A stretch of DNA of 64,000 nt from the NCBI RefSeq assembly GCF_001677475.2, contig NZ_CP015229.1; one strand, written 5' to 3'. How positions within the stretch are numbered: the stretch's first letter is position 1; each line of letters starts with the position of its first letter. Below, piece by piece: positions 2,365-52,617 of this stretch. Source of the DNA: Escherichia coli. Its GTDB lineage: Bacteria; Pseudomonadota; Gammaproteobacteria; Enterobacterales; Enterobacteriaceae. The notes beneath the pieces were generated by a model. That model searched no databases and was not told the origin of the DNA. It saw only the letters and a list, made by a program, of their open reading frames with translations. A program made the position numbers and the translations under genes.

Positions 2365-3042
2365 ATGAAGTGGGACTGGATTTTCTTTGATGCCGATGAA
2401 ACGCTGTTTACCTTTGACTCATTCACCGGCCTGCAGCGGATGTTTCTTGACTACAGCGTCACCTTTACCGCTGAAGATTTTCAGGACTATCAGGCCGTTA
2501 ACAAGCCACTGTGGGTGGATTATCAAAACGGCGCGATCACTTCATTACAGCTTCAGCACGGGCGGTTTGAGAGCTGGGCCGAACGGCTGAACGTCGAGCC
2601 GGGTAAACTCAACGAAGCCTTTATTAATGCGATGGCGGAAATCTGTACGCCGCTGCCGGGCGCGGTTTCTCTGCTTAACGCCATTCGTGGCAACGCCAAA
2701 ATCGGCATCATCACCAACGGCTTTAGTGCCTTGCAACAGGTGCGTCTGGAACGCACGGGCCTGCGTGATTACTTCGATTTGCTGGTGATTTCCGAAGAAG
2801 TTGGCGTTGCCAAACCGAATAAGAAAATTTTCGATTATGCGCTGGAACAGGCGGGCAATCCTGACCGTTCACGCGTGCTGATGGTTGGCGACACTGCCGA
2901 GTCCGATATTCTCGGTGGCATCAACGCCGGGCTTGCGACCTGCTGGCTGAATGCGCACAATCGCGAGCAACCAGAAGGCATCGCGCCCACCTGGACCGTT
3001 TCTTCGTTGCACGAACTGGAGCAGCTCCTGTGTAAACACTGA
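2365..3042 (+). CDS. yjjG: HAD-family pyrimidine 5'-nucleotidase
   Basis: 225-aa ORF starting [15 protein letters not shown] (HAD DxD motif); K-12 synteny. Confidence 0.88.
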
Positions 3043-3132
3043 TTGCCTCCCCCCCGTTGATGGGTAAAATAGCCGCAATTTTTCGTTTTCAACAAGCGCG
3101 GCGCGATGCCGCTTACTCAAGAAGAAAGAATT

Positions 3133-3207
3133 ATGACGTTGTCTCCTTATTTGCAAGAGGTGGCGAAGCGCCGCACTTTTGCCATTATTTCTCACCCCAA
3201 TAATTAA
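3133..3207 (+). pseudogene. prfC: Displaced 5' end of prfC (first ~21 codons) left at attL, running into phage DNA to a stop
   Basis: ATG at 3133 encodes [22 protein letters not shown] then diverges (NN*) after the att core; the full prfC is at 54307. Confidence 0.8.
3184..3197. other. attL core (ATTATTTCTCACCC), left prophage junction
   Basis: Identical 14-bp sequence recurs at 54355..54368 inside the intact prfC 5' end; flanking ~20 bp match with one mismatch. Confidence 0.75.
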
Positions 3208-3361
3208 GCCTAAATTAAAGCTCTTTTACTTTTTCAAAGTCCTTTCAGTTAATTGATGTTTGGTTTTATAAGTCATTTAAATACAGTTAGTTATGTGGCT
3301 TCTTTAATTGAAAATTCTTTCATGTAACTTTAAATCGATCAGGTTGCTTTCATCAAAAATC

Positions 3362-3418
3362 TGTACATATGCTTGTACATAATGTACAAAGCAGCAGAGG
3401 TGTTTTGCGATTTGTACA
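3362..3418. promoter_or_regulatory. Cluster of four TGTACA-containing repeats (TTGTACATA / ATGTACAAA) between attL and int; candidate integrase arm-type sites
   Basis: ctgTACAtatgctTGTACATAATGTACAAAg ... tTGTACAag; the same 9-mers recur near attR (54172..54286). Confidence 0.4.
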
Positions 3419-3427
3419 AGGTGAGTA

Positions 3428-4663
3428 ATGGCGCTGTCTGATGCGTGGTTGCGTTCAGTCGTTGGAAAGGAACGTGATAAGGTTTTGGTTAAATCCGATC
3501 GTGATGGTCTGTCTGTCAGAGTATCACCGAAAGGTCGCGTAGTGTTCCAATATCGTTATCAATGGGCAGGGAAAGGTGAGCGCCTTGATATCGGAACTTA
3601 CCCGGCAACTGGATTAAAAGAGGCCAGAGAAGAAGTTATCCGTCTCCGTGGTGAACTCGAGTCAAACCGCAATCCACGATTAGTCAAGCAGGCTGAAAAA
3701 CGAAAAGCTACTGAAGCCATGACGGTAGAGTCTGTGATCCGTGCCTGGTATGAAGCATATTGTGTAAAAAATAAAAAAGGTTCTGAACAGATACTCCGCT
3801 CGTTTGAGCTGCACCTGTTCTCTAAAATCGGGAATATCCCTCACGATGCAGCTACATTGCATGATTGGTTAGAAGTCCTGGAGCCTCTTAGCACCAAGAC
3901 TCCAGCAATAGTAGACCGATTGCTAATTAACGCAAAGCAGGCTCATGTCTGGGCGTATAAGAGAAAGCTCATTGAAACTCGCCCACTGTCGGATATCACG
4001 GGTAAAGATATGGATATCCGTAAAGGTCAGAAAAAACGGTTTCTGACACATGATGAAATTAACATCCTTTATGCTGCGATCGATGGTTCTCGAATGGTTC
4101 CTAAATACCGAGCCTTCATTAAACTATTGCTGCATTTTGGTTGCCGTAGTTCAGAGCTAATTACTGCTAGGGTGGATGATTTTGATTTCATAAATAAGGT
4201 ATGGACTGTACCACCAGAACGACATAAGACTGGGGACATAACAGGCGAACCGCTAAAGCGGCCCATTATTGAACCGGTTGAAGAGCTTATAAAATACGTT
4301 ATCTCTATGAACAACGGTTCCGATATGCTTTTTACTAAGGAAGGAAGCAGGGAGCCAGTTGGTCGGACATCATTGCAGTCGCTGCCTTACAATTTAATGC
4401 AGTTCGCATGGCGACGTTTGGGGTATCAATTTCCTCATTGGTCTCTTCATGATTTGAGACGAACAGCACGAACAAACTTTTCTGATCTTACTGCTCCTCA
4501 TATTGCTGAAATAATGCTTGGTCATAAACTGCCAGGTGTATGGCAAGTTTATGATAAGAGCGATTATCTAGAAGAACAGCGTAAAGCTTACTGGGCATGG
4601 TGGGAGAGGGTTGAATCGATCGTTACTTGTACTGACTTAATCTCCAACGGACAGTTTGCGTAG
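3428..4663 (+). CDS. int: Tyrosine integrase, P4-type (N-terminal arm-binding domain plus catalytic domain)
   Basis: 411-aa ORF directly inside attL; C-terminal HDLRRTARTN and catalytic Y region typical of tyrosine recombinases; SD AAGGTGAG before ATG. Confidence 0.9.
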   Translation: MALSDAWLRSVVGKERDKVLVKSDRDGLSVRVSPKGRVVFQYRYQWAGKGERLDIGTYPATGLKEAREEVIRLRGELESNRNPRLVKQAEKRKATEAMTVESVIRAWYEAYCVKNKKGSEQILRSFELHLFSKIGNIPHDAATLHDWLEVLEPLSTKTPAIVDRLLINAKQAHVWAYKRKLIETRPLSDITGKDMDIRKGQKKRFLTHDEINILYAAIDGSRMVPKYRAFIKLLLHFGCRSSELITARVDDFDFINKVWTVPPERHKTGDITGEPLKRPIIEPVEELIKYVISMNNGSDMLFTKEGSREPVGRTSLQSLPYNLMQFAWRRLGYQFPHWSLHDLRRTARTNFSDLTAPHIAEIMLGHKLPGVWQVYDKSDYLEEQRKAYWAWWERVESIVTCTDLISNGQFA

Positions 4664-4821
4664 CCAGAGCGTAATCATATCTGCCAGTCCGCTGCGGATA
4701 CCTTGTGTACTGGGTTTTTAGCCAGACTACGTTAACCGGTAGCTTCAGTATTTGGGGTGTCGGCAGGAGTTTGATGGTTTATTGGGTTACTGTGGGACTA
4801 AGGATGTAGGGATGCCAATCG

Positions 4822-5955
4822 ATGAATTATGAAAAATATCATAGCACAAACAGAAGCAAGGGTTTGCGAACCTTCTGCTACTTAATTTATTATGTGCAGG
4901 TGATTTTTAATGTGATGAAGTGTTTTATGACTCGCGGAAACTTTGATTTTATAAACTCTAACGTGGTTTTCTCAGAAGCCGATAAGTCATTGTGGATTGA
5001 TCTCATTAACACCGATTGTATTTGGTATGATATGATAATTAATCCTCCTGATGATATAAGAACAAATAAGATAATAAAGAACTATCTCAGAATTATGGAA
5101 AAATATACGAGGGAAAGCTGTGAAAAGAGATTTATTTATTTCTTAGGTTCAAGAAAAAAAGTGAGGTTTTCAACCAAGAAACAGCCTAGGTATAACCCAT
5201 TCACAAAAAATATAGTATTCACTCTGTTGATTGGCAAAGAAGAGCGAAAGCTTCGGATAAAATATTCCTTTTGCACGTTTACGCAGAATGGGGTAGTGAA
5301 GGTAACTCCAAATGTTAGAGTAACTGAGAAGTTTCTCTACATTGAATATGAAAATGGCAATTTATGTGTGATGTCAGTTCATGATTTCGTAAACGGACAT
5401 TATATTGATTTAGGAATTCATACAGAAGTGCATTACGTAGGATATACACGTCATCCGCATCGGCGCCCTGTTGATTTTATTCACCGTGGCTTATCAAAGA
5501 TGCTGTATAGCGTTTCAAATGACGATAATGATTTTTTTGTTTGTTTTAGTATATTTAATCCAAGGATTATATCTCTGAATAATAAATGTAATGTGGTCTT
5601 TAATATTTCAAATTCTCTACTGGATGAAATTGATGTTGATAATGAGGGGAGAATTATTGAAAACTGCTTAATACGTTACTTTGATCCTAAGCTTCAAGAT
5701 GATGACAAGGAAAGTAAAAGGTCAGATTTAAATAAAATGTTTATGGACCTGGTGGAAAATAAAAAAATTAAAAAAATATACGTTAATTTTCAATATGAAA
5801 GGAATAATGAGTATTTCTGCTTTTACTCTAAAGTTGTTCCGCCGAAATTTCATCATTTCTTTGTGTTGGATTTTTCTGATGGCAAGATAAATATTGATAG
5901 AGACCAGGATATGATGACTCAGATGGCATTGTGCATGGGGTATTATAATTATTAA
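4822..5955 (+). CDS. Hypothetical protein, strongly AT-rich cargo gene between int and xis (function unknown)
   Basis: Single uninterrupted 377-codon ORF with N/K/I/F-rich composition, much lower GC than the flanks; alternative in-frame ATG at ~4915 has a better SD. No motif I can assign. Confidence 0.55.
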   Translation: MNYEKYHSTNRSKGLRTFCYLIYYVQVIFNVMKCFMTRGNFDFINSNVVFSEADKSLWIDLINTDCIWYDMIINPPDDIRTNKIIKNYLRIMEKYTRESCEKRFIYFLGSRKKVRFSTKKQPRYNPFTKNIVFTLLIGKEERKLRIKYSFCTFTQNGVVKVTPNVRVTEKFLYIEYENGNLCVMSVHDFVNGHYIDLGIHTEVHYVGYTRHPHRRPVDFIHRGLSKMLYSVSNDDNDFFVCFSIFNPRIISLNNKCNVVFNISNSLLDEIDVDNEGRIIENCLIRYFDPKLQDDDKESKRSDLNKMFMDLVENKKIKKIYVNFQYERNNEYFCFYSKVVPPKFHHFFVLDFSDGKINIDRDQDMMTQMALCMGYYNY

Positions 5956-6164
5956 TATTTCGCCTGATGCCAACTCAAAATCTTTTTTGTCGCATCCATT
6001 GTGGATTAATATTCAGAGGTAAGGGGTATCTGCGGAATTTATATTTTGCAGGATGAGCATACAATACATGATATAACATCTGTTTTTGGCACAGAGCATA
6101 TAGTCAGATTATGTTTAGTTCTGTGCCATAGATGGATATTATCTCACCTCTTGGCTAACTCTCA

Positions 6165-6359
6165 TTACTCAATAACTCCAGCAAATCTGTATATTTTGCG
6201 TGATGCCCATTTATTTGGGCAGGATTTAATATCAGGATCTGGAAAATCTGGCCTGTATTTCTGGCCTGTCCTCCTGTTTACGCTGTTCCAGCGAAGCACC
6301 GTCGATATTGAAACGCCACAGAATTCGGCGACTTGTTTTGTTGTCATTAAGTTGCTCAT
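6165..6359 (-). CDS. xis: Excisionase / AlpA-family small DNA-binding protein
   Basis: 64-aa ORF MSNLMTTKQVAEFCGVSISTVLRW..., winged-helix pattern of the AlpA/Xis family; SD GGAGGGG upstream; last gene of the leftward operon. Confidence 0.6.
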   Translation of the reverse strand: MSNLMTTKQVAEFCGVSISTVLRWNSVNRRTGQKYRPDFPDPDIKSCPNKWASRKIYRFAGVIE

Positions 6360-6393
6360 TGCTACCCCTCCAGCGGTTGTTCAGTTGAAAGAC

Positions 6394-7947: not shown

Positions 7948-8310
7948 TTAATGACCTGCTGCGCGGAGTTTTCCGTCAGGTTCACCGGCAAGAGTCAGTA
8001 ATTGTCCCTGGTCTTCCTGCAGAATAGTCAGGCGACCACCGCGATTGACATACATCGGCGTTTCGGTGGTGTCTTCTTCGGAAATTTTCCCGCGGTTAGT
8101 CGGGCGAACATATGAGAGTTTGTGTTTGATTTTCACACGGTTCTCATCAAATGGTTCGATTTCCAGGTTGAGTGAGACCTTACCTTTGGTTTTCGTGTTC
8201 ATCACACCTGAAGCGACTTCACTGAGAACTGCGCCGATTTTGGTTTCAAATACGCCGCCGTCCAGCTCCCCGATAAATGCCTGCACATCAGTACTGCGTT
8301 CGCTAGCCAT
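7948..8310 (-). CDS. YfdP-like prophage protein (120 aa)
   Basis: Track ORF trimmed to internal ATG at 8310 (MASERSTDVQ...) preceded by SD GAGGAG; synteny with yfdQ/yfdR-like genes. Confidence 0.5.
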   Translation of the reverse strand: MASERSTDVQAFIGELDGGVFETKIGAVLSEVASGVMNTKTKGKVSLNLEIEPFDENRVKIKHKLSYVRPTNRGKISEEDTTETPMYVNRGGRLTILQEDQGQLLTLAGEPDGKLRAAGH

Positions 8311-8944
8311 TTTGCTGCTCCTCATCATATCGACCCTGCAAGGTCGGTTGGTTTCTCCACAAAACAGAGAAGAACACCTGCGGTGGCAGCCGCCCGGATG
8401 GATTGGGTTATGAGCCCGTCGTCCGGTGATGCTCTTCTCTGTTTTGTAAAAAGAGCGGTACCAGCCGGAAGCAAGTGTACAAACTGGTACCGCCAAAGCA
8501 GTGGCTGTTGTGGTGACCGGTGCTGATCTCCGGCTTGCGGTTATTTCAGACTCTCACGGGTGTTTAATTGCCCCGCCGAACAGCTCTTTTCCGCAATAGC
8601 TGCAATGTCTTTCGCGCATCAGCCTGCGCATTCACCACAACGCTGAGAGCACTTAGCCAGTTACGGCACCACACTTTGTCGCGGTTCCATAAATGCCCTC
8701 ATCGTTGCACCCTGGTCTCTTCCCAGGTGTCAAACCGAACCGCCACGCTGGTTAGGCGTCTTATCAGCATCATCATTGACTTGCACATTCCGGCTACCTG
8801 GTTTGTTTGCCCGAGCAAGGAGTGGATTGTCCCCTTTAACGTCCCCAGACCGCTAACGACGCATGTGCCATACGCCGTGTTACAACCAAATTTTGTTAGT
8901 ACCTTGTTTGTTGGTCTGGAAAGAAAGATAAAATGAAGTTGCGC

Positions 8945-8985
8945 ATTATGCAAGTGTTTTTGTTGCGAGATATGCAATTTGATGG
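8945..8985. promoter_or_regulatory. Putative OL operator/PL promoter region (TTGCG-N5-TGCAA palindromes)
   Basis: TTGCGCATTATGCAA and TTGCGAGATATGCAA immediately downstream of the cI terminator; the same half-site recurs in the cI-cro intergenic region. Confidence 0.4.
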
Positions 8986-8989
8986 GTAA

Positions 8990-9012
8990 TGAAAAGCCAC
9001 CTTCGGGTGGCT
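8990..9012 (-). terminator. Rho-independent terminator downstream of the repressor gene
   Basis: GCCACC-TTCG-GGTGGC stem-loop followed by a U-run on the minus strand. Confidence 0.6.
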
Positions 9013-9032
9013 AATTGATGAGGAGGTAAGGG

Positions 9033-9725
9033 TTAATTGTGTCGCTTAAGGGTTTGTGACTGGCTGATTAAGACCTTTCCAAAGACCATAAACCGGTGTT
9101 CATTTTCGCTGGTAATTCCCCATTCACGGTAAATCTGGTTATCAGAAATCACCAGTAGTTTGTCAGGTATCATTTGCAGTCGTTTGACATAAATTTTATC
9201 ATCAAAACCAAATACATAGATACCATCTCCATCAAACTGATTGATACTGACATCAACGAAGATGAGATCTCCTGGCTCAATGGTTGGACACATACTGTCC
9301 CCACGAACGTTGATTACTTTAATGTGATTTGCTGGCCGTCCGCCAAACATCGATACAGCATTATCAGTTCTGTATTCAATGGCATGAATCACATCAATGA
9401 CATCACCGCCCTGGATAAGGCCATTTCCCGCACTGGCACTGATATCCAGCATTTCAATACGGAATACATCCTTCACCTGCGCAACATCCTCACTAATACT
9501 GTTTTTACATACAGTATTACTTTTGAAGTCTGAGGTAAAGAGATCAGCAATATCAACACCTAAGCTCCTGGCAATATTACTCAGGGCTTGTTCAGTGAAT
9601 TGTTTCTGCTTACCTGTTTCCAGGCGCGAGATATTTGCCGCATCCACTCCTATTGCTTCAGCGAGATCGGCGATTTTCATGTTCTTCGCTTGGCGAAGTT
9701 GTCTGACTCGATTTCCTATGTTCAT
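9033..9725 (-). CDS. CI-like repressor (N-terminal HTH, C-terminal S24/LexA-type autopeptidase)
   Basis: 230-aa ORF; HTH (MKIADLAEAIGVDAANISRLETGK) and S24 peptidase motifs (GDSM ... KRL). Confidence 0.85.
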   Translation of the reverse strand: MNIGNRVRQLRQAKNMKIADLAEAIGVDAANISRLETGKQKQFTEQALSNIARSLGVDIADLFTSDFKSNTVCKNSISEDVAQVKDVFRIEMLDISASAGNGLIQGGDVIDVIHAIEYRTDNAVSMFGGRPANHIKVINVRGDSMCPTIEPGDLIFVDVSINQFDGDGIYVFGFDDKIYVKRLQMIPDKLLVISDNQIYREWGITSENEHRFMVFGKVLISQSQTLKRHN

Positions 9726-9729
9726 GCGT

Positions 9730-9822
9730 TTATTACATTTCTTTATTGCGCGTTAAGCAAATCAACTTGCGCAAAATATTTGCGTGAAATAATATGCTCA
9801 TCACGCAATATGTGGAGGTTAT
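9730..9822. promoter_or_regulatory. Divergent promoter/operator region between cI and cro (OR-like)
   Basis: Repeated TTGCGCAA / TTGCGTGA ... TCACGCAA palindromic half-sites between divergent genes. Confidence 0.5.
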
Positions 9823-10083
9823 ATGCAATCACCATTACGGAATGTGCGTAAAGCGCACGGATTTACTTTGCAGCATGTTGCTGCTGGCGTTCAGGTCAAT
9901 CCAGCGACGCTGAGTCGTATTGAAAGACTGGAACAAATTCCATCTATCGAGCTTGCAGAACGTCTGGCCAATTTTTTTAAGGGTGAAATCAGCGAAATGC
10001 AGATTCTTTATCCGGCACGTTTTCAATCTAGCCAAAACCAGAATGGGTTTAAACCACAGGAACAGGAGATAAGCCGTGGGTAA
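9823..10083 (+). CDS. Cro-like HTH regulator (YdaS-like)
   Basis: 86-aa HTH ORF divergent from cI; SD GGAGG before ATG. Confidence 0.7.
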   Translation: MQSPLRNVRKAHGFTLQHVAAGVQVNPATLSRIERLEQIPSIELAERLANFFKGEISEMQILYPARFQSSQNQNGFKPQEQEISRG

Positions 10084-10627
10084 GCATCACTGGAAAGTGG
10101 AAAAACAGCCTGAGTGGTACGTGAAAGCTGTCAGAAAAACTATCGCGGCGTTGCCGGGGGGTTACGCTGAAGCTGCTGAGTGGCTGGATGTAACAGAGAA
10201 CGCTTTATTCAACCGCCTTCGTGCAGATGGCGATCAGATTTTCCCGCTGGGATGGGCAATGATTTTACAGCGCGCTGCTGGCACTCACTACATTGCGGAT
10301 GCTGTCGCACAGTCTGCTGGTGGGGTGTTTGTATCGCTTCCTGAAATTGAGGAAGTAGAGAACGCCGATATAAACCAGCGCCTGCTGGAAGTCATCGAAC
10401 AAATCGGGAGTTACTCAAAGCAGATTCGTTCGGCAATCGAAGATGGGGTAGTGGAGCCACACGAGCAGACAGCAATTAATGATGAGTTGTATCTGTCGAT
10501 TTCGAAGCTCCAGGAGCATGCGGCACTGGTCTACAAAATTTTCTGCGCTCCAGAAAAGAGTGACGCCCGCGAGTGTGCAGCTCCGGGCGTCGTGGCGTTT
10601 TGTGTCTGTGGAGAAACTAACGCATGA
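10076..10627 (+). CDS. YdaT-like protein (CII-position regulator of Rac-type immunity regions)
   Basis: 183-aa ORF overlapping the cro-like gene; GTG start with SD AGGAG; position and size match racR-ydaS-ydaT arrangement. Confidence 0.55.
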   Translation: MGKHHWKVEKQPEWYVKAVRKTIAALPGGYAEAAEWLDVTENALFNRLRADGDQIFPLGWAMILQRAAGTHYIADAVAQSAGGVFVSLPEIEEVENADINQRLLEVIEQIGSYSKQIRSAIEDGVVEPHEQTAINDELYLSISKLQEHAALVYKIFCAPEKSDARECAAPGVVAFCVCGETNA

Positions 10628-10772
10628 ACAGTTTAACGGCAAATAACCGTTTGTCGCAACAGCTGGTGGTCAGCGTCTCTGAACACCTGTTGTTACGGCA
10701 TGAATGCAGATTACCAAATCACCAGGCTGTAAGTAACCACAGAGAACTTTACCTGACTGTGGGGGGCGAGTT

Positions 10773-10952
10773 GTGCAGGAACTTAACCGCTGGTTTCGTG
10801 ACGGAAGAGGGCTTTATGTTCATGTTATTCGTTGGGAACCAGAAACACAGCGCGTTATCTATCTTCGCAAAGACTACCCGCATGAGTGCTTTAGTCCTTT
10901 GTGGAAATTCAGGCGTGATTTTGTTGAGTGTGACGGACCACCAACACATTGA
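10773..10952 (+). CDS. Hypothetical 59-aa protein (GTG start), upstream of a terminator
   Basis: GTG preceded by GGGGGG; ORF MQELNRWFRDGRGLYVHVIRWEPETQRV...; below the track length cutoff; hand-translated. Confidence 0.3.
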   Translation: MQELNRWFRDGRGLYVHVIRWEPETQRVIYLRKDYPHECFSPLWKFRRDFVECDGPPTH

Positions 10953-11037
10953 TTCTGCCATTCCGGGACGTTACACTGTTCAGGCACCTTATAAAACGGG
11001 TGCCGGGCGTGGAAACCCGGAATTCACCAAAGCGCAC

Positions 11038-11060
11038 AACCGCGCTCTTGCGGTTTTTTT
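11038..11060 (+). terminator. Rho-independent terminator (tR1-like) containing a boxA-like CGCTCTT
   Basis: AACCGC-GCTCTT-GCGGTT stem followed by TTTTTTTG. Confidence 0.5.
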
Positions 11061-11229
11061 GTGTCATGAGCAGCATTACGCCCAAATTATGGTGGGGCGT
11101 GCAGGGCCAACTTCGGTTGGGCCGGGTTCTTTGGTGACCGGTATTTCCACCCCTGTACGTCTCACCACCAATAAGGTCGTGGAAAGCCTTGGTGGTGAGT
11201 TATTAAAAATCACCAAAGAGGCTGCCATC

Positions 11230-11775
11230 ATGGCTACGATCCCAACCCTCACTCAACCTGAAATTGCCATCGTTGATGGTCAGGTTGTTACTTCATCCCT
11301 GGCTGTTGCCAACTTCTTCTCCAAACGTCATGACGATGTACTGAAAAAGATCCGCACGCTTGAATGCTCAGCATCATTCACTGCCCGCAATTTTTCGGTG
11401 AGTGATTACACTGATTGCACAGGTCGCAAACTTCATTGCTACCAAATCACACGCGACGGTTTTGCGTTTCTTGCTATGGGTTTCACGGGTAAACGTGCTG
11501 CCCAGTTCAAAGAGGCATATATCAATGCCTTTAACCAGATGGAGAAACAGCTTTCAAAGCCCGCTGTACCGAGCGACGTTGCACATAACGCCAGCGTTCT
11601 CTGTTCCTACATTTCATCAATTCATCAGGTCTGGCTGCAGCAGCTTTATCCTATGTTGGCAAAAGCCGAATCTCCGCTGGCTGTTAGCTTATATGATTAT
11701 ATTAATGATGCTTCGGCGCTGGCCTGCCTCATAAATTTGTCGCTGAACCCTTCAGAGGTAAGGGGGCGCAAATGA
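11230..11775 (+). CDS. Rha-family phage regulatory protein / antirepressor-like
   Basis: C-terminal part of track ORF 10624..11775; start set at MATIPTLTQPEIAIVDGQVV with SD AAAGAGG; Rha-like N-terminus. Confidence 0.6.
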   Translation: MATIPTLTQPEIAIVDGQVVTSSLAVANFFSKRHDDVLKKIRTLECSASFTARNFSVSDYTDCTGRKLHCYQITRDGFAFLAMGFTGKRAAQFKEAYINAFNQMEKQLSKPAVPSDVAHNASVLCSYISSIHQVWLQQLYPMLAKAESPLAVSLYDYINDASALACLINLSLNPSEVRGRK

Positions 11776-11996
11776 TCCGGAATATTTTCAAACGTTTTAC
11801 CAATCAGACTTTCCGTTGTCCTCGTCCGGGTCAGTGGTACACCACGCCTGCAGGGCATGTTCTACGTGTTAGCCTGGTTGACCGTGAATGTCAGAAGGTG
11901 GTTTGTGAACCGCTGGGCCGTAATTACCGCGTCAGTATGCCGCTTATAGCCTTTTGCTCCGGAAAAAACATGAAGCATCTCGGAGGTGCAGCATGA
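11772..11996 (+). CDS. Hypothetical small phage protein (74 aa)
   Basis: ATGA overlaps with both neighbours, suggesting translational coupling. Confidence 0.4.
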   Translation: MIRNIFKRFTNQTFRCPRPGQWYTTPAGHVLRVSLVDRECQKVVCEPLGRNYRVSMPLIAFCSGKNMKHLGGAA

Positions 11997-12811
11997 GTAT
12001 GGAGCTGATGGTTAAAGCGATGAAAATTCGAGTGGGTAATCCATTGCGAAAACTGGTTCTGATCAAGCTGGCTGATAATGCCAGCGATCAGGGTGAGTGC
12101 TGGCCCAGCTACCAGCATATTGCTGACCAGTGCGAGATTAGCAAACGTTCTGTGATGAATCATATTGCGGCCCTTTGTGATTCCGGGCTGGTAAAAAAAG
12201 TCACCCGGAAAGGTGAAAAAGGTAACTCAAGTAATATCTATCTCCTTCATCTTGATGGTGCAGGAGATTCACTAGGGGGTAGTGCAAATAATTCACTATC
12301 TGGTGCAGCAAATTCACCAGGTAGTGCAGGAGTTGCACCAGGGGGTGGTGCAGGAGATTCACCCAGAACCAGTCACTCTTTTGAACCAGTCAAAGAACCA
12401 GTCAATGAACCAATAGCTGTTGGTGCATCTGCTGATGAGTCTGTGCGAGTTCGTTCAAACCGACCGGAATACTCTCCGGAGTTTGAGCAGGCATGGCTGG
12501 CATACCCCAAACGTGCTGGTGGCAATTCAAAATCTGCAGCCTTCAAAGCCTGGAAAGCCCGTTTGAATGAGGGGGTAAAACCCGAAACCATGCTGGAAGG
12601 TGTGAAACGCTACGCGGGCTGGGTATCTGCGATGGGTAACAGCGGCACACAATTTGTGAAACAGGCTGTCACGTTCTTTGGTCCGGATCGTCATTTCGAA
12701 GAATCCTGGGAAGTTCCTGCGGTATCTGCAGCCAGACGCGAGGACCCGTACTTCAAAGCCAGTTACGACAACGTGGACTACAGCCAGATCCCGGCAGGAT
12801 TCAGGGGGTAA
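11993..12811 (+). CDS. Replication initiator, O-like (N-terminal HTH)
   Basis: Start at MSMELMVKAMK with SD GGAGGTG; N-terminal winged-helix; internal iteron-like DNA repeats. Confidence 0.6.
   Translation: MSMELMVKAMKIRVGNPLRKLVLIKLADNASDQGECWPSYQHIADQCEISKRSVMNHIAALCDSGLVKKVTRKGEKGNSSNIYLLHLDGAGDSLGGSANNSLSGAANSPGSAGVAPGGGAGDSPRTSHSFEPVKEPVNEPIAVGASADESVRVRSNRPEYSPEFEQAWLAYPKRAGGNSKSAAFKAWKARLNEGVKPETMLEGVKRYAGWVSAMGNSGTQFVKQAVTFFGPDRHFEESWEVPAVSAARREDPYFKASYDNVDYSQIPAGFRG
12250..12420. repeat. Iteron-like direct repeats inside the O-like gene (putative ori)
   Basis: About five imperfect ~18-21 bp repeats (GGTGCAGGAGATTCAC-like) followed by three GAACCAGTCA repeats, analogous to lambda ori within O. 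Confidence 0.45.
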
Positions 12812-12813
12812 TC

Positions 12814-13302
12814 ATGAGTCTTTTGAATGAAGTTCAGAAATTCATTGAAGCCCATCCGGGGTGTACTTCCGGAGACATTGCAGATGCTTTTGCAGGTTAC
12901 TCACGGCAGCGCGTTCTGCAGTCAGCAAGCAAGTTACGTCAGAGTGGGCGTGTGGCTCACCGTTGTGAAGGAGATACACGCAGACATTTCCCGCGCCTGA
13001 CTGAGAGAGCGCAGGAGCCGGAACCACAACCAGTTCGTGAAACCAGACCTGTGCGCAATTTCTATGTCGGCACTAACGATCCCCGGGTAATTTTGTGCCT
13101 GACCCGCCAGGCTGAAGAACTGGAGTCCAGGGGCTTATACCGTCGTGCTGCAACCGTGTGGATGGCGGCATTCCGTGAAAGCCACTCCCAGTCAGAACGA
13201 AACAATTTTCTGGCGCGCCGTGAGCGGTGCTTACGGAAAAGCAGCAAGCGCGCTGTATCGGGTGATGAGTGGTATCTGTCAGGGAATTACGTGGGGGCTT
13301 AA
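12814..13302 (+). CDS. PerC-family (Pch-like) transcriptional activator candidate
   Basis: 162-aa ORF with C-terminal LESRGLYRRAATVWMAAF resembling the PerC signature; recalled, not searched. Confidence 0.4.
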   Translation: MSLLNEVQKFIEAHPGCTSGDIADAFAGYSRQRVLQSASKLRQSGRVAHRCEGDTRRHFPRLTERAQEPEPQPVRETRPVRNFYVGTNDPRVILCLTRQAEELESRGLYRRAATVWMAAFRESHSQSERNNFLARRERCLRKSSKRAVSGDEWYLSGNYVGA

Positions 13303-13955
13303 TGAGTAATAAATATTGCCAGGCGCTGGTGGAACTGCGGAACAAACCAGCCCATGAACTGAAGGAAGTGGGCGATCAGTGGCGCACGCCGGACAACATT
13401 TTCTGGGGAATTAACACCCTGTTTGGCCCGTTTGTTCTGGATCTGTTCACCGACGGTGATAACGCCAAATGTGCCGCGTATTACACGGCGGAAGACAATG
13501 CGCTGGCGCATGACTGGTCAGAACGTCTTGCGGAGCTTAAAGGTGCTGCCTTTGGTAATCCCCCATACAGCCGCGCCAGTCAGCATGAGGGGCAATACAT
13601 CACCGGCATGCGTTACATCATGAAGCATGCCAGTGCCATGCGTGATAAGGGCGGACGCTATGTTTTCCTGATCAAAGCTGCCACCAGCGAAGTGTGGTGG
13701 CCGGAAGATGCAGATCATATTGCTTTTATTCGCGGGCGTATTGGTTTTGAAGTGCCTGCCTGGTTTATCCCGAAAGACGAGAAGCAGGTGCCGACAGGCG
13801 CTTTCTTCGCTGGTGCTATTGCTGTTTTCGATAAGACCTGGAAGGGACCGGCAATCAGCTACATCGGGCGCGATGAACTTGAGGCATGTGGTGAGGCGTT
13901 TCTGGCGCAGGTTCGCCAGCAGGCAGAACGGCTGGTCAGGGAGATAGTGGCATGA
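13302..13955 (+). CDS. Phage N6-adenine DNA methyltransferase (Dam-like, orphan)
   Basis: FGNPPYS (NPPY) catalytic motif; ATG at 13302 with SD; no adjacent restriction gene. Confidence 0.75.
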   Translation: MSNKYCQALVELRNKPAHELKEVGDQWRTPDNIFWGINTLFGPFVLDLFTDGDNAKCAAYYTAEDNALAHDWSERLAELKGAAFGNPPYSRASQHEGQYITGMRYIMKHASAMRDKGGRYVFLIKAATSEVWWPEDADHIAFIRGRIGFEVPAWFIPKDEKQVPTGAFFAGAIAVFDKTWKGPAISYIGRDELEACGEAFLAQVRQQAERLVREIVA

Positions 13956-14341
13956 AGCTGATCCTGCCTTTTCCGCCCAGCGTGAACACGTACTGGCGAC
14001 ACCCCAACAAAGGGGCGTTTGCAGGTAAGAGCCTGATAAGCGCGGCGGGGCGCAAATTCCAGAGCGCGGCGTGTGCAGCAATAGTTGAGCAGTTACGTCG
14101 TCTGCCGAAACCAACGTCGGCACCTGCTTCAGTGGAGATCGTGTTGTTTCCTCCGGATAACCGGATCCGCGATCTGGACAACTATAACAAGGCGCTGTTT
14201 GACGCCCTGACCCACGCGGGTGTGTGGGAAGACGACAGTCAGGTGAAAAGAATGCTGGTGGAGTGGGGACCGGTTATCCCGGAAGGGAAGGTCGAGATCA
14301 CTATCAGTAAGTACGAGAAAACGGCGGGTGCAGCCGCCTGA
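13952..14341 (+). CDS. rusA: RusA Holliday-junction resolvase
   Basis: 129-aa ORF MKLILPFPPSVNTYW... with conserved Asp residues typical of RusA. Confidence 0.85.
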   Translation: MKLILPFPPSVNTYWRHPNKGAFAGKSLISAAGRKFQSAACAAIVEQLRRLPKPTSAPASVEIVLFPPDNRIRDLDNYNKALFDALTHAGVWEDDSQVKRMLVEWGPVIPEGKVEITISKYEKTAGAAA

Positions 14342-14360
14342 TCAAGAGGAGAAACGAAGT

Positions 14361-15203
14361 ATGAATAATCTGATGGTCATTGATGGTATTGAAGTTCGTC
14401 GTGATGCTTATGGGCGTTACAGCCTGAACGATCTGCATCGGGCTGCTGTTGCATCTGGTGCAAATGCCAGAACTAAGGAGCCGGGAAAGTTTCTTTCCAG
14501 CCAACAGATTACTGAGCTGGTTCAGGAATTGATCGATACCCAAAATTTGGGTGTCGGTTCATTCAATGAAACTACCCAAAATTTGGGTAGTAAACCAGTA
14601 AGTAAAATAGAAGGGCGGAATGGAGGAACGTATGTCTGCAAGGAACTGGTGTATGCCTATGCAATGTGGATCAGCCCGTCATTCCATCTGAAGGTGATCC
14701 GTACTTTCGATATGGTAACCAGCACACCGGAAAAATTATCCGGGCAGGCTGCTGACAAGATGCAGGCTGGCGTGATCCTGCTGGACTTTATGCGCCGGGA
14801 ATTAAACCTGTCTAACTCATCAGTGCTTGGAGCCTGTCAGAAGCTTCAGGAGGCTGTTGGCTTACCGAATCTGGCACCGCGCTATGCCATTGATGCTCCT
14901 GCTGACGCGCCTGATGGCTCAAGTCGCCCCACGCTGTCGCTGAGTGCACTGCTGAAACAGTATGGTATCCGCCTGACGGCTAATCAGGCATATCACCAGA
15001 TGGTGAAGCTGGGGATCGTTGAACAACGCGAACGATACAGCCGTACCGCGATTAACAACATCAAAAAATTCTGGTCGCTGACGGCGAAAGGCTGCATGTT
15101 CGGCAAGAACATCACCAGTCCTGCAAATCCGCGCGAGACGCAGCCGCATTTCTTCGAATCCCGATTCCCTGAGCTGTTAAAGCTGCTCGATACCGTTCAT
15201 TGA
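14361..15203 (+). CDS. KilA-N domain protein (antirepressor-like)
   Basis: N-terminus MNNLMVIDGIEVRRDAYGRYSLNDLHRA is a KilA-N signature; start trimmed to ATG with SD AGAGGAG. Confidence 0.65.
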   Translation: MNNLMVIDGIEVRRDAYGRYSLNDLHRAAVASGANARTKEPGKFLSSQQITELVQELIDTQNLGVGSFNETTQNLGSKPVSKIEGRNGGTYVCKELVYAYAMWISPSFHLKVIRTFDMVTSTPEKLSGQAADKMQAGVILLDFMRRELNLSNSSVLGACQKLQEAVGLPNLAPRYAIDAPADAPDGSSRPTLSLSALLKQYGIRLTANQAYHQMVKLGIVEQRERYSRTAINNIKKFWSLTAKGCMFGKNITSPANPRETQPHFFESRFPELLKLLDTVH

Positions 15204-15204
15204 G

Positions 15205-16200
15205 GTGACCGTGAGAGCACTACTGACCCCTGAAATTGCCCCGCGTATGGGGATCGTATTGTTCAGGCCAGGTTCAGAGCTGATGCCCCTGTTTATGCAG
15301 GGGCGTGTCCTGCTGGAGCCTGAGCCGGAACGTTATTCATCTTTCGCCAGTGGTGCCGTTCCGGCGGCATCACAACCGCTGGCGGATGATCCTGCCGTTC
15401 GGGCCGTGTTCCGCAATGAGGCAGTGATCCGTCGTGCTGGTGGCGTGGAATGTCTTGAAAGCTGGTTACTTCGTGAAAAGGGCTGTCAGTGGCCTCATTC
15501 CGACTGGCACAGCGAGAACATGACCACAATGCGACACGCGCCGGGCGCAATCCGTCTGTGTTGGCACTGCGATAACCAGTTGCGTGATCAGTTCACGGAA
15601 CGGCTGGAATCAATGGCAACGGATAACTGTGCCCGCTGGGTGTTATCTGTCGTGCGTCGGGATCTCGGTTTTGATGACAGTCACGTAGTGACAATGCCGG
15701 AACTGTGCTGGTGGCTGGTTCGTAATGACCTGGCGGATGCCTTACCGGAAAGTGCAGCCCGTAAGGCACTGAGATTACCGAAGCCTGTTGTGCCGTCTGT
15801 CACCCGGGAAAGTGACCTTGTGCCTTCGGTTCCTGCCACCAGCATCATCCAGGATAAAGCGAAAAAGGTGCTGGCGCTGAAAGTGGATCCGGAGTCGCCG
15901 GAGTCTTTTATGTTACGCCCAAAACGTCGCCGCTGGGTTAATGAAAAGTACACGCGCTGGGTTAAGACACAGCCGTGTGCATGTTGTGGAAAGCCCGCTG
16001 ATGATCCCCACCACCTGATAGGCCACGGTCAGGGTGGAATGGGTACAAAAGCGCATGACCTTTTTGTGTTGCCTTTGTGCAGAAAGCATCACGACGAGCT
16101 GCATGCGAATACCGTGGCATTTGAAGAGAATTATGGCTCCCAGCTGGAGCTGATATTTCGTTTTATCGATCGTGCGCTGGCAATAGGCGTACTGGCGTAA
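15205..16200 (+). CDS. DUF968-type prophage protein (YdfU-like), Cys/His-rich C-terminus
   Basis: 331-aa ORF upstream of Q as in Qin; C-terminal CACCGKPADDPHHLIGHG...CRKHHDELH. Confidence 0.55.
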   Translation: MTVRALLTPEIAPRMGIVLFRPGSELMPLFMQGRVLLEPEPERYSSFASGAVPAASQPLADDPAVRAVFRNEAVIRRAGGVECLESWLLREKGCQWPHSDWHSENMTTMRHAPGAIRLCWHCDNQLRDQFTERLESMATDNCARWVLSVVRRDLGFDDSHVVTMPELCWWLVRNDLADALPESAARKALRLPKPVVPSVTRESDLVPSVPATSIIQDKAKKVLALKVDPESPESFMLRPKRRRWVNEKYTRWVKTQPCACCGKPADDPHHLIGHGQGGMGTKAHDLFVLPLCRKHHDELHANTVAFEENYGSQLELIFRFIDRALAIGVLA

Positions 16201-16213
16201 GTGGAGAACGAGC

Positions 16214-16966
16214 ATGAACCTTGAAGCTTTACCAAAATATTACTCCCCAAAATCGCCAAAATTGAGTGATGACGCACCGGCGACAGGCTCGGGTGGTTTA
16301 ACAATAACAGATGTGATGGCTGCGCAGGGGATGGTGCAGTCGAAAGCTCCGCTTGGTTTTGCCTTATTCCTGGCAAAAGTTGGTGTTCAGGATCCTCAGT
16401 TTGCGATTGAAGGTCTGCTCAATTACGCGATGGCAATGGATAATCCGACATTGAACAAATTGAGTGAAGAAATCCGGTTACAGATCATCCCTTACCTTGT
16501 GAATTTTGCCTTTGCTGATTATTCCAGGTCTGCGGCAAGTAAGGCTCGCTGTGAGTATTGTGCTGGTACTGGATTTCATAATGTATTGCGCGAAGTGGTG
16601 AAACACTCCAGAAGCGGGGAATCTGTTATCAAGGAAGAGTGGGTGAAGGAACTATGTCAGCATTGCCATGGTAAGGGAGAAGTCAGCACAGCGTGCAGAG
16701 GGTGTAAGGGGAAAGGTATTGTCCTGGATGAAAAAAGAACCCGGCTTCATAGCACGCCTGTTTATAAGGTTTGTGGGCGTTGCAATGGAAACCGGTTTAG
16801 TCGTTTACCAACGACACTGGCGCGGTGTCATGTCCAGAAGCTGGTACCAGACCTGACGGATTATCAGTGGTACAAAGGATATGCAGATGTCATTGATAAA
16901 CTGGTTACAAAGTGCTGGCAGGAAGAAGCATATGCTGAGGTGCAATTAAGAAAAGTGACGAGATAA
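16214..16966 (+). CDS. Late-gene antiterminator Q (zinc-binding)
   Basis: 250-aa ORF with multiple CxxC motifs (CEYCAGTG, CQHCHGKG, CRGCKGKG, CGRCNGN); upstream of the lysis cassette. Confidence 0.75.
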   Translation: MNLEALPKYYSPKSPKLSDDAPATGSGGLTITDVMAAQGMVQSKAPLGFALFLAKVGVQDPQFAIEGLLNYAMAMDNPTLNKLSEEIRLQIIPYLVNFAFADYSRSAASKARCEYCAGTGFHNVLREVVKHSRSGESVIKEEWVKELCQHCHGKGEVSTACRGCKGKGIVLDEKRTRLHSTPVYKVCGRCNGNRFSRLPTTLARCHVQKLVPDLTDYQWYKGYADVIDKLVTKCWQEEAYAEVQLRKVTR

Positions 16967-17727
16967 ATGATTTTCACCGAACGATGGCGACATAACGATT
17001 GTATTTTCTAAGGAAACGTGCAAAGAGTTTTCCAATGATGAGCCTTATATGCATACCGGTGGAAAATATCAATAAGCCGCGCAGAGTGGTTTTTTTGTGG
17101 ACATAAACTTTGTGCAGAACGGTAACCATTATGGTTGCCGTGAATGCAGTTTTTTTACATTGCTGGCTTTTTTAGATTTGTGTTAGTTATTGATATTAAC
17201 AAGAAGGGGAAAAGACATGCTAAAACGGCAGGATATGAAGGAAACGGTTATGCGTGAATGTTCCAGTGTGATTAACCATATCATCTGGAGAAGCCATCCT
17301 GATGCAGGGAAGAGGTAACAGTAACGCGCATCAATCAGGCTGCAAATAAATGGCTTACGCCGGAAATCTGGCTATCGATGTATTACCGGTTTGTTACCCA
17401 TGAAGAAAATTAAGGTGATAACGAAACTGATTTTATAGGTGTCTTGTCAGAGTGTTGCGATGAAACTTGTGTTGGCAGTGCAGGGAAAACAGTAGGATGA
17501 AAATTATAAATTGCTTTAAATTAGCTTGATTTTCCTCATGTTATGAGATATTTGTCTTATATTGCTGGTTAATTATGAAAATTTTTGTAAATCTACAGCA
17601 ATAAAATCCATATTAATTAAAGCACTAGATGCGTTTCTGATTTGTGCATGAAACATACATATCATAATGATTAATTGCATCTATAATTACAGATACAGCA
17701 TTGTGCTGTTAAAAAACTGGAGTCCCC

Positions 17728-17835
17728 ATGAATACATTATATGTAAGTGATTCAAATGAAAAATCTCATGACAGGAATAAAAACAATGAGGATAGTAAGG
17801 GTAAGGATAATAAAAAAGACAACCGGAAAGAGTAA
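17728..17835 (+). CDS. Hypothetical 35-aa highly charged small protein
   Basis: ATG with upstream CTGGAG; MNTLYVSDSNEKSHDRNKNNEDSKGKDNKKDNRKE; hand-translated, below track cutoff. Confidence 0.25.
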   Translation: MNTLYVSDSNEKSHDRNKNNEDSKGKDNKKDNRKE

Positions 17836-17870
17836 ATAATCTTTCCTGCATAAAAATACTAGGGTGGAAT

Positions 17871-17990
17871 ATGTCAGAACATCCAGATTTTGATGACCGT
17901 AAGCCTGATGATGAGCCCGTTGAGCGTCCTGATGAGGGGCAACCATTGAACCCTTTTTCACCGGATGATAAAAGAGATCCTATTATTTAG
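17871..17990 (+). CDS. Hypothetical 39-aa acidic small protein
   Basis: ATG preceded by GGGTGG; MSEHPDFDDRKPDDEPVERPDEGQPLNPFSPDDKRDPII; followed by a terminator. Confidence 0.25.
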   Translation: MSEHPDFDDRKPDDEPVERPDEGQPLNPFSPDDKRDPII

Positions 17991-18044
17991 ATATAGCAGA
18001 ATATAGCCGTTTAAAGTAGGTTGTGTTTTGTTGCTATCCTTAAA

Positions 18045-18071
18045 CCACCTCCACAGGAGGTGGTTTTTTAC
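18045..18071 (+). terminator. Rho-independent terminator
   Basis: CCACCTCC-ACAG-GGAGGTGG followed by TTTTTTA. Confidence 0.7.
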
Positions 18072-18126
18072 TAATGGAACATTAATTGGCAGATGTGATT
18101 GTGTACAACTTATGGGAGGCTTAAGA

Positions 18127-18312
18127 TTATTTTCTGCCAATAATAAAACCAAGCGTTAACCCTATGCTTAGAGCAACCACCACGCTAGTCAGTGGATAAT
18201 TTCTAAATTTATCTTTAACGTTTTCTTTGCCTCCCTGCAAAGCATCGTCAGCACATGATGCATATTTTTTGACAGTATTAACTATTTCGTTTTCAGATTG
18301 ATTTGAAGTCAT
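18127..18312 (-). CDS. Small C-terminally membrane-anchored protein, DUF883 (ElaB/YqjD)-like
   Basis: C-terminus DKFRNYPLTSVVVALSIGLTLGFIIGRK resembles ElaB-family anchors; start taken at internal ATG. Confidence 0.35.
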   Translation of the reverse strand: MTSNQSENEIVNTVKKYASCADDALQGGKENVKDKFRNYPLTSVVVALSIGLTLGFIIGRK

Positions 18313-18765
18313 GTTTGAAGTCCTGATGTTAAGTGGCTTTTTAATTATAGCAGATATGCTTTCAATGATAGGGCGGAGAGTTGTTATTGAGGTGATACTA
18401 TGACCACTCAATCAACATTACATAAAATGACGTTTACTCCTGTTTGGCACAGTAGCAGAATTTTGCTTCTGCTACTGAAGTCGCTTTAGCACTAGAATAT
18501 GCAGATGGATAAAGCAGTTCAGCGTATGTACTGCGTCATGCATATCGGTCTTGCAGATATGACGAGAAGGGGAGACAAGGTGTGTGTAATGTAGAAGTCT
18601 TTAAAGTGCTGTCTGGGATAACTCTATACTGAAGTGCAATTGATAAAAGTAACACGATAAAGGTTTTTCAATGAAGATGGTAACGTGATGCTTGCATTTT
18701 TCAAAAAATATGGATAAAATTTTTTCAACGATGGGCTTTGTATACCCGACGTTAAGAAAAAGTAG

Positions 18766-18792
18766 AAAACCCGCTGATGAGCGGGTTTTGTG
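18766..18792. terminator. Bidirectional rho-independent terminator
   Basis: AAACCCGC-TGATGA-GCGGGTTTTG with T/A runs on both sides. Confidence 0.55.
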
Positions 18793-19081
18793 CTTTAAAT
18801 GGGGCAATGGTAATGTTGAATCTCATCCCGGGACTCATGTCTGTTAACTTATTATTTAGCTGGTGACTTGGTTATTTGCCTGATGTTTAAAATGTTTTCT
18901 TCCAGTACAATGTCCCTAAACACAATGAGTCTGCTTATTATATTATTAGCAGAGCTATTACGGCCAAAGTACAGCATAAGCTTTTAAAGCCAGTCAACCA
19001 GTCATCAAGACAGACGGGGTTATTCATAAAAACTCTCCATGTGTGATCCGATGGGGCCTGAAATTAAAGCTTTAATATAGC

Positions 19082-40943: not shown

Positions 40944-42370
40944 ATGGGTAAAGGAAGCAGTAAGGGGCATACCCCGCGCGAAGCGAAGGACAACCTGAAG
41001 TCCACGCAGTTGCTGAGTGTGATCGATGCCATCAGCGAAGGGCCGGTTGAAGGTCCGGTGGATGGATTAAAAAGCGTGCTGCTGAACAGTACGCCGGTGC
41101 TGGACACTGAGGGGAATACCAACATCTCCGGTATCACGGTGGTGTTCCGTGCCGGTGAGCAGGAGCAGACACCGCCGGAGGGGTTTGAATCCTCCGGCTC
41201 CGAGACGGTGCTGGGTACGGAAGTGAAATATGACACGCCGATCACCCGCACCATTACGTCTGCAAACATCGACCGTCTGCGCTTTACCTTCGGTGTACAG
41301 GCACTGGTGGAAACCACCTCAAAGGGTGACAGGAATCCGTCGGAAGTCCGTCTGCTGGTTCAGATACAACGTAACGGTGGCTGGGTGACGGAAAAAGACA
41401 TCACCATTAAGGGCAAAACCACCTCGCAGTATCTGGCCTCGGTGGTGGTGGATAACCTGCCGCCGCGCCCGTTTAATATCCGGATGCGCAGGATGACGCC
41501 GGACAGCACCACAGACCAGCTGCAGAACAAAACGCTCTGGTCGTCATACACCGAAATTATCGATGTGAAACAGGGCTACCCGAACACGGCACTGGTCGGC
41601 GTGCAGGTGGACTCGGAGCAGTTCGGCAGCCAGCAGGTGAGCCGTAATTATCATCTGCGCGGGCGTATTCTGCAGGTGCCGTCGAATTATAACCCGCAGA
41701 CGCGGCAATACAGCGGTATCTGGGACGGAACGTTTAAACCGGCATACAGCAACAACATGGCCTGGTGTCTGTGGGATATGCTGACCCATCCGCGCTACGG
41801 CATGGGGAAACGTCTTGGTGCGGCGGATGTGGACAAATGGGCGCTGTATGTCATCGGCCAGTACTGCGACCAGTCAGTACCGGACGGCTTTGGCGGCACG
41901 GAGCCGCGCATCACCTGTAATGCATACCTGACCACACAGCGCAAGGCGTGGGATGTGCTCAGTGATTTCTGCTCGGCGATGCGCTGTATGCCGGTATGGA
42001 ACGGGCAGACGCTGACGTTCGTGCAGGACCGACCATCAGATAAGGTGTGGACCTATAACCGCAGTAATGTGGTGATGCCGGATGATGGCGCGCCGTTCCG
42101 CTACAGCTTCAGCGCCCTGAAGGACCGCCATAATGCCGTTGAGGTGAACTGGATTGACCCGAACAACGGCTGGGAGACGGCGACAGAGCTTGTTGAAGAT
42201 ACGCAGGCCATTGCCCGTTACGGTCGTAATGTCACGAAGATGGATGCCTTTGGCTGTACCAGCCGGGGGCAGGCACACCGCGCCGGGCTGTGGCTGATTA
42301 AAACGGAACTGCTGGAGACGCAGACCGTGGATTTCAGCGTGGGTGCTGAAGGGCTTCGCCATGTACCGGG
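40944..42370 (+). pseudogene. J: Tail tip/host-specificity protein J, 5' fragment (~476 codons) truncated by IS insertion
   Basis: Lambda J-like N-terminus ending ...GLRHVPG at the IS junction; track ORF runs a few codons into the IS to a stop. Confidence 0.9.
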
Positions 42371-42463
42371 TATGAGACGACAATAACTCAGTCCGCCTGG
42401 CGCCGATTATTCTGGCCGGTTTTGTAACCTGAGTGTCATTTACATGATCCAACAGGAAATGGC

Positions 42464-44715: not shown

Positions 44716-44781
44716 TGTCGCCCTGAAGGGTGCGGCCAGTATAGTTGGCGCGAGTCGGCAAAACTAGTTGACGTCTAATAA

Positions 44782-52026: not shown

Positions 52027-52617
52027 TTATATGTCAGGTGTCTGAAGTTTTGCTTTGGCTCTTAAAATGGTTTGCCGCGAGGTTTTGAATTCCCGGGCAA
52101 TGGCACTTATACTTACACCTGACTTAATTCGTTCGAATACCACCTGTTTCTGTTCTTCATTTAACACAGGTGGTCGACCAAAACGTTTCCCTGCGCCCCG
52201 GGCTCTTACTATCCCGGAATGAGTGCGTTCAAGTAAAAGGTCTCGTTCAAATTCAGCGACTGCTGAAATTACTTGCATCATCATTTTTCCTGTTGGACTG
52301 GTCAGGTCAATGCCCCCCAATGCTAAGCAATGCACTCTGATACCTGTTTCGGTCAGTTGTTCCACTGTTTTCCTGATATCCATTGCATTACAACCAAGGC
52401 GATCCAGTTTTGTCACAATCAATTGATCACCACATTTCAGGCGAGCAAGCAACCGGTTAAAACCAGGACGCTCACTGGTTGCTGCTGAGCCGCTAATGTG
52501 TTCTTCGATTATTTGCTGAGGTTTGATTTTAAAACCTGCACTTTCGATTTCCCGGCGTTGATTTTCGGGGGTCTGATCCAGCGTTGATATCCGACAGTAA
52601 GCAAAAATTCGAGACAT
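52027..52617 (-). CDS. pin: Serine recombinase / DNA invertase (Pin/Hin/Gin family)
   Basis: 196-aa [18 protein letters not shown]... with catalytic Ser motif and C-terminal HTH; adjacent to tfa as in e14/Rac/Qin. Confidence 0.88.

Follow-up and report, generated by a model that had tools for sequence, protein, structure and literature searches.

An SfV Dam-type adenine methyltransferase gene in the early operon of an Escherichia coli lambdoid prophage, and its probable GATC target

The stretch of DNA analysed here, which we call the window, comprises 64,000 nucleotides of an Escherichia coli chromosome (contig NZ_CP015229.1) and carries a lambdoid prophage between yjjG and prfC. Within this prophage lies an open reading frame (ORF) on the plus strand at 13302..13955, which a sequence-only reading had described as an orphan, Dam-like N6-adenine methyltransferase bearing an NPPY motif. 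The ORF listing and our reading of the sequence revealed that it runs from an ATG at 13302 to a TGA ending at 13955 and comprises 217 codons plus the stop. It corresponds to the RefSeq coding sequence WP_001557928.1, which is 100% identical to the product of the window ORF. A GTG start upstream, at 13269, would give a longer ORF and found no support, since RefSeq calls the ATG and the homologues share an M-x-N-x-Y N-terminus there.

When the 217-residue product was compared with protein families, it matched Pfam PF05869, 'DNA N-6-adenine-methyltransferase (Dam)', with an E value of 9.7e-46 and 156 bits (cutoff 28.1) over profile positions 3-167 of 169. It also matched the NCBIfam equivalog TIGR01712, 'phage N-6-adenine-methyltransferase', with 254.8 bits (cutoff 97.05) over positions 1-165 of 165. 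PHROG 111 (DNA methyltransferase) was matched as well, as was the PADLOC model MTase_II (type II methyltransferase) over 217 of 217 positions, together with two 'orphan methyltransferase' models. The matches to PF05869 and TIGR01712, both far above their cutoffs, bear out the assignment to an N6-adenine methyltransferase family that had been made from the sequence alone.

We then considered the residues on which activity would depend. In an alignment of 28 diverse family members, D25, W27, T29, D47, N54, P87, P88, Y89, S90 and R146 are invariant. The NPPY motif noted from the sequence alone was found at residues 86-89 of the ORF. The codons of this catalytic motif IV, N86-P87-P88-Y89, which S90 follows, occupy 13557..13568 (+). 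N86 is nearly invariant in the family, and all five residues are unchanged in the Dam proteins of VT2, HP1 and T1. The DxWxTP family motif, D25-Q-W27-R-T29-P30, is encoded at 13374..13391 (+), and its P30 is nearly invariant. Residues 44-54 (FVLDLFTDGDN; 13431..13463, +), which include D47 and N54, form the first Rossmann strand (E44-50 in the AlphaFold model, with a predicted local distance difference test score (pLDDT) above 90) and the loop after it, and may represent the motif I-like region that binds S-adenosylmethionine (AdoMet). NPPY and all invariant family residues are thus kept in the window protein and, because they are intact, the inactive catalytic motif that would have spoken against the sequence-only reading does not apply.

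The AlphaFold model of the methyltransferase (pLDDT 95.1, predicted template modelling score 0.90) is a confident one and consists of a single domain, as expected of a small Rossmann-fold enzyme that lacks a target-recognition domain of its own. Neither phmmer nor a profile built from 28 sequences found a relative of solved structure. The ratio of non-synonymous to synonymous substitution rates (dN/dS) between the window gene and its SfV orthologue was 0.083, which indicates purifying selection on this intact gene.

The gene is widespread. Its DNA is 100% identical in 10 other complete E. coli genomes; 2101 of the 5426 complete E. coli genomes carry it at an identity of at least 95%, and in 1724 of the 5426 at least 80% of the gene is covered. 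It is thus a real and ordinary gene, carried by about one third of complete E. coli genomes, and already a known one, named correctly by the NCBI pipeline in thousands of genomes. Literature on ECOR13 phages carrying the gene yielded nothing relevant. DNA 97% identical to it was found in phages SfV (where the gene is called 'dam'), SfII and 1720a-02 and in many Stx2a/Stx2c phages. The closest comparison is with SfV Dam (orf41), annotated in GenBank U82619 as 'dam: DNA adenine methylase'. Both proteins have 217 residues, with 98.2% protein and 97.1% DNA identity and four conservative differences (V151L, A153V, R210K and I215M). In both SfV and mEp460 dam occupies the same operon slot as in the window, after PerC/orf40 and before RusA. 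The window gene, a member of family PF05869/TIGR01712, is thus the counterpart in an E. coli prophage, by orthology, of the dam gene of phage SfV.

Several differences and oddities were noted among the nearest relatives. In SfV and mEp460 a LexA-like gene, which the window prophage lacks, separates dam from rusA. Both phages also carry, downstream of Q, a second, EcoGII-like methyltransferase gene encoding about 350 residues (9549-10601 in SfV, 8046-9098 in mEp460), whereas none was found at 16966-19000 of the window; in size and position, the second enzyme resembles the M.EcoGII type. YfdM of the K-12 cryptic prophage CPS-53 is a 91-residue remnant that stops at NPPY, whereas the window copy is complete; residues 1-89 of YfdM are 100% identical to the window protein, and yfdN lies upstream in both. 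Relatives 57-74% identical to the window protein occur as fusions, either with a C5 DNA_methylase domain on the N-terminal side of Dam (P0008, P0011 and P0015 in our set) or with a phosphoadenosine phosphosulfate (PAPS)-reductase-like PAPS_reduct domain on one or other side (P0010 and P0025). RefSeq phage records misname the orthologue 'phosphoadenosine phosphosulfate reductase' in SfV (NC_003444, 5001-5654), mEp460 (2808-3461), SfII and Kati. The name seems to stem from PHROG 33262, whose members are fusions of PAPS reductase and Dam. The match of the 217-residue window protein to this family is confined to the Dam part at the C-terminus (positions 283-492 of 495), and the protein contains no PAPS domain.

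The description 'Dam-like' held for function and family name and failed for descent. The window protein had no match to PF02086, the family of the alpha-class host Dam and T4 Dam, at E values up to 0.01, and is 8-9% identical to these enzymes over about 106-109 aligned residues. Membership of PF02086, the alpha-class order of motifs and an inserted target-recognition domain, which define a classical Dam, are all lacking. No kinship to host Dam was found beyond the common Rossmann methyltransferase core, so that the likeness to host and T4 Dam is likely to reflect convergence on the target and not orthology.

What the enzyme methylates was judged from characterised members of its own family. 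T1 Dam methylates GATC and is a PF05869 protein 23-24% identical to the window protein. M.EcoGV, a 'Dam homolog' of O104:H4 prophages that reportedly has GATC as its target, was considered as a possible equivalent of the window gene. M.EcoVT2Dam has been reported to be GATC-specific (PMC6602927), and orf32 of VT2-Sakai belongs to PF05869 and is 31% identical to the window protein. HP1 Dam, cited among Dam-like phage enzymes (PMC7556043), belongs to PF05869 with 26% identity. The lactococcal M.Phi93DAM has 'only the NPPY motif', and its GATC target was demonstrated by sequencing in single-molecule real-time (SMRT) mode, DpnI/DpnII digestion and use of the cloned gene (PMC4190342); the gene at the corresponding position of phage Phi91127 encodes a PF05869 protein 32% identical to the window protein over residues 25-149. 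The VT2, HP1, T1 and Phi93 enzymes have in common with the window protein the PF05869 domain, DxWxTP, D47, N54, NPPYS and R146, and like it are small, lack a separate target-recognition domain, and are orphan and phage-borne with an early or nin-like gene position. The characterised GATC members span 140-237 residues and are 23-32% identical to the window protein; their specificity was established by experiment, whereas that of the window protein is deduced. The window protein has insertions after NPPYS and at about residues 155-165 and a long C-terminal helix at 190-216, which are absent from the four others. One target is thus shared across divergent PF05869 members, and GATC is therefore the best guess for the window enzyme, whose substrate is probably the adenine of this sequence.

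Other clues to specificity were set aside. The prophage contains 157 GATC sites against 193 expected, and the flanks are near expectation; mild depletion of this kind is typical of mobile elements (PMC4659465) and is uninformative about the target. Papers on oomycete DAMT and DIRS that mention PF05869 were likewise uninformative. M.EcoGI/GII, phiP27 L24 and Serratia OS31_p25 (beta class) and Hia5/Hin1523 (alpha class) are orphan and prophage-borne, as is the window gene, and the non-specific phage enzymes are thought to act in the lytic cycle only, shielding phage DNA from restriction (PMC5778455, PMC3299994, PMC7556043). However, these are beta-class proteins of about 350 residues or alpha-class proteins with DPPY, in contrast to a 217-residue protein with NPPY, and their genes lie downstream of Q or in the place of mom, whereas the window gene lies upstream of Q. 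The hallmarks of the M.EcoGII type (about 350 residues, an N-terminal DPPY, a central target-recognition domain, a C-terminal FxGxG and a position downstream of Q) were not found in the window protein, whose NPPY comes after the AdoMet-loop region; SfV, mEp460 and phiP27 have the EcoGII-type gene as an ORF of its own. We found no sequence relationship to any of these enzymes and rejected them as homologues, together with M.EcoGIX, an unrelated plasmid enzyme specific for single-stranded DNA. The non-specific enzymes belong to other families and bear neither way on the target of the window enzyme.

The claim that the methyltransferase has no restriction partner was also supported. The window is 99.7% identical to strain M114 over positions 346-52387, one insertion excepted, and the RefSeq annotation of the near-identical prophage in that strain lists no restriction endonuclease. 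Furthermore, when ORFs with poor annotation (4822-5955 and those for YfdQ, YfdR, KilA-N, DUF968, the invertase and the macro-domain protein) were scanned with Pfam and PADLOC, no component of a restriction-modification system came to light, consistent with an orphan enzyme. Besides RusA, the sole nuclease-like neighbour is a DUF968/HNH gene at 15211-16200 (+), two genes downstream of the methyltransferase, with an HNH motif recognised by Pfam HNHc_6 and PHROG 96.

The methyltransferase gene lies in the early-right, replication/nin-like operon (9823..16966, +), as judged from gene order, common orientation and overlaps, with the same map in SfV and mEp460. The operon encodes, in order, a cro-like helix-turn-helix (HTH) protein, YmfL, Rha/Ash, a small ORF, an HTH_36/DnaD-like replication protein, PerC/YfdN, the methyltransferase, RusA, KilA-N, DUF968/HNH and the Q antiterminator. 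Profile and annotation matches identified the upstream neighbour as a PerC-family regulator homologous to YfdN (12814..13302, +) and the downstream neighbour as a RusA Holliday-junction resolvase (13952..14341, +). At the upstream junction (13294..13304, +) we read a GGGGG Shine-Dalgarno-like run at 13294-13298 and a TAATG overlap at 13300-13304, in which the TAA stop of PerC/yfdN and the ATG of the methyltransferase have one base in common. At the other end the RusA start codon and the methyltransferase stop codon overlap as ATGA (13952..13955, +), suggesting that translation of the two may be coupled. A sequence scan found no promoter-like or terminator-like site on the plus strand between about 11.5 and 15.9 kb. 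Divergently from the operon lies an XRE/cI-like repressor gene (9033..9725, minus strand; RefSeq annotation of the identical segment), whose product, in its presumed role, would hold the operon off in the lysogen. A strong terminator-like hairpin with a T-run (AACCGCGCTCTTGCGGTTTTTTTTG) was observed at 11038-11055 (+), inside the 383-residue Ash+Rha ORF (10624-11775) and upstream of the genes for replication and for the methyltransferase; a tR1-like site, at which antitermination is required, might lie here.

Collectively, these data led us to propose that the gene encodes a stand-alone, AdoMet-dependent N6-adenine methyltransferase that would methylate replicating phage DNA after induction. 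We infer this activity together with its GATC target, timing and benefit, and put the probability of the proposal at roughly 0.7. In the lysogen the cI-like repressor would keep the gene silent, and the enzyme would be made only upon induction or infection. Induction would lead to transcription of the early-right operon and to translation of the methyltransferase coupled to both of its neighbours. The enzyme would then methylate newly replicated phage DNA ahead of packaging, faster than host Dam could. Host Dam would be limiting during the burst of phage replication, and the phage copy would leave the packaged genomes fully methylated. Such genomes would resist DpnII/MboI-type enzymes, which cut unmethylated GATC, in the next host, and the phage enzyme would free methylation from the dam status of the host. 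A role in anti-restriction or self-protection, which had been suggested from the sequence, is a reasonable inference; protection against DpnII has been shown only for the distant family member M.Phi93DAM (PMC4190342). Silence of the gene in the lysogen is probable, and other prophage methyltransferases have been found unexpressed in lysogens (PMC5778455, PMC4659465). The methylome of a lysogen would probably be uninformative about the enzyme, because of this silence and because host Dam would mask GATC activity. The proposal would thus place in roughly one in three complete E. coli genomes a silent extra adenine methyltransferase that is invisible to the lysogen methylome.

Several points weigh against this proposal. 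The identity to the characterised GATC enzymes is only 23-32%, and the insertions or the C-terminal helix could alter target recognition. No biochemical tests of the 217-residue SfV-type subfamily were found in the literature searched. As to the timing of expression, the early-right promoter itself was not among the sites that the promoter scan recognised, and in the SfV record a promoter specific to dam is marked within the upstream gene. The latter has weak hexamers (TTGCGC and TACGGA), its -35 is degraded to TGGCGC in the window and the scan found no promoter there; it was therefore rejected as a candidate. In addition, a GATC enzyme looks redundant in dam+ E. coli, and we know of no methylation-sensitive, GATC-cutting restriction systems that are common in enterobacteria, so that the size of the benefit is doubtful.

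The doubts about the target lead to the alternative that the enzyme is active but methylates a motif other than GATC, or has relaxed specificity, giving broad protection against adenine-sensitive restriction systems. We consider this unlikely. It would fit the low identity to the GATC-specific members and the insertions and helix peculiar to the subfamily, as well as the occurrence of relatives about 70% identical that are fused to C5-cytosine methyltransferases, as is typical of protective enzymes with several targets. Prophage methyltransferases of relaxed specificity are known in E. coli phages, such as M.EcoGII (PMC5778455) and OS31_p25 and phiP27 L24 (PMC7556043), but they come from families other than PF05869, namely the beta class of about 350 residues encoded downstream of Q or the alpha-class Hia5, whereas GATC is the target of every PF05869 member for which we found a specificity reported. 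Furthermore, TIGR01712 is an equivalog-level model, and the window protein lies far above its cutoff. That the gene might be decaying and without function, merely carried along by a defective prophage, was suggested by the damage to the prophage, which has an IS21-family element in gpJ and an annotated YdfR pseudogene, and by the existence of truncated copies such as K-12 yfdM, which ends at NPPY. This is very improbable, given an ORF of full length that spans the whole family profile with every invariant residue intact, identical copies in 10 other genomes and a dN/dS of 0.083 against the functional phage SfV.

Another possibility, for which we would give rather long but not negligible odds, accepts the methylation as real and assigns it mainly to phage DNA transactions, that is, to keeping replicating and recombining DNA fully methylated at GATC, and so safe from breakage in MutH-directed mismatch repair, or to epigenetic control of promoters or of the choice between lysis and lysogeny. 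The gene is always found among replication and recombination genes, beside RusA in the window, SfV and mEp460 maps and, for the VT2-Sakai member, between NinB and NinE, and with host Dam already present restriction protection would add little within E. coli. Position within a mosaic nin-like region is, however, weak evidence, the analysis of the window identified no regulatory site sensitive to methylation, and one family member has been shown to protect against DpnII (PMC4190342); the two roles can also coexist. It is hardly credible, by comparison, that the methyltransferase and the DUF968/HNH nuclease (15211-16200) form an unconventional phage restriction-modification or self/non-self pair. 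The HNH motif itself speaks for such a pair, as do the co-occurrence of DUF968 with the methyltransferase in SfV, mEp460, ST64B and Stx2c phages and the arrangement in Vibrio phage 1.232.O (3465-4372), where a short DUF968 gene begins at the last base of the PF05869 gene. Yet phage PPompW_132418 has DUF968 (of the ydfU type) beside rusA and Q and no methyltransferase, whereas VT2-Sakai has a member of the methyltransferase family and no DUF968 among the annotated genes of its first 30 kb; DUF968, although a recurrent neighbour, is therefore not an obligate partner and was rejected as the restriction component. PADLOC returned no defence-system match for the DUF968 protein, and a GATC target would leave host DNA equally methylated, allowing no discrimination. 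We regard it as improbable, too, that the SfV-type subfamily has a target other than plain GATC, or acts jointly with its neighbour, with DUF968/HNH and the methyltransferase constituting a methylation-aware nuclease/methyltransferase system in roughly one complete E. coli genome out of three.

Further features of the prophage were observed outside the early-right operon. Its ends lie at about 3142-3210 and 54307-54370, where yjjG and the 5' end of prfC flank it, and at the left junction RefSeq annotates a gene fragment of 69 bp. When the two ends were compared, the sole exact repeat was one of 14 bp (at 3184 and 54355), which does not define the attachment core. Just downstream of the integrase gene (3428-4663), a 377-residue ORF at 4822-5955 (+) matched only PHROG 7779, of 'unknown function', with no match in Pfam or PADLOC. 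The segment at about 4634-6388 differs from that of the strain A32 prophage at the same site and is therefore a variable cargo slot, and the ORF could be a moron or defence gene.

In the tail region, a 2.4-kb IS21-family element at 42371-44780 (IstA 42464-43963, IstB 43960-44715), absent from the M114 prophage, splits the gpJ tail-tip gene into 40944-42386 and 44842-46773, so that the prophage probably cannot make infective particles. A macro-domain protein is encoded at 50443-51345 (+; Pfam Macro, E 8e-19), with matches to PHROG 2613 (unknown) and PHROG 14717 ('tail'). The start of its gene overlaps the end of a gene for a 979-residue tail fibre (47507-50446), and a tail-fibre assembly gene comes next. 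Beside the latter lies a gene for a Pin/Gin-like serine invertase (Resolvase and HTH_7; 52027-52617, minus strand), suggesting the presence of an invertible host-range segment.

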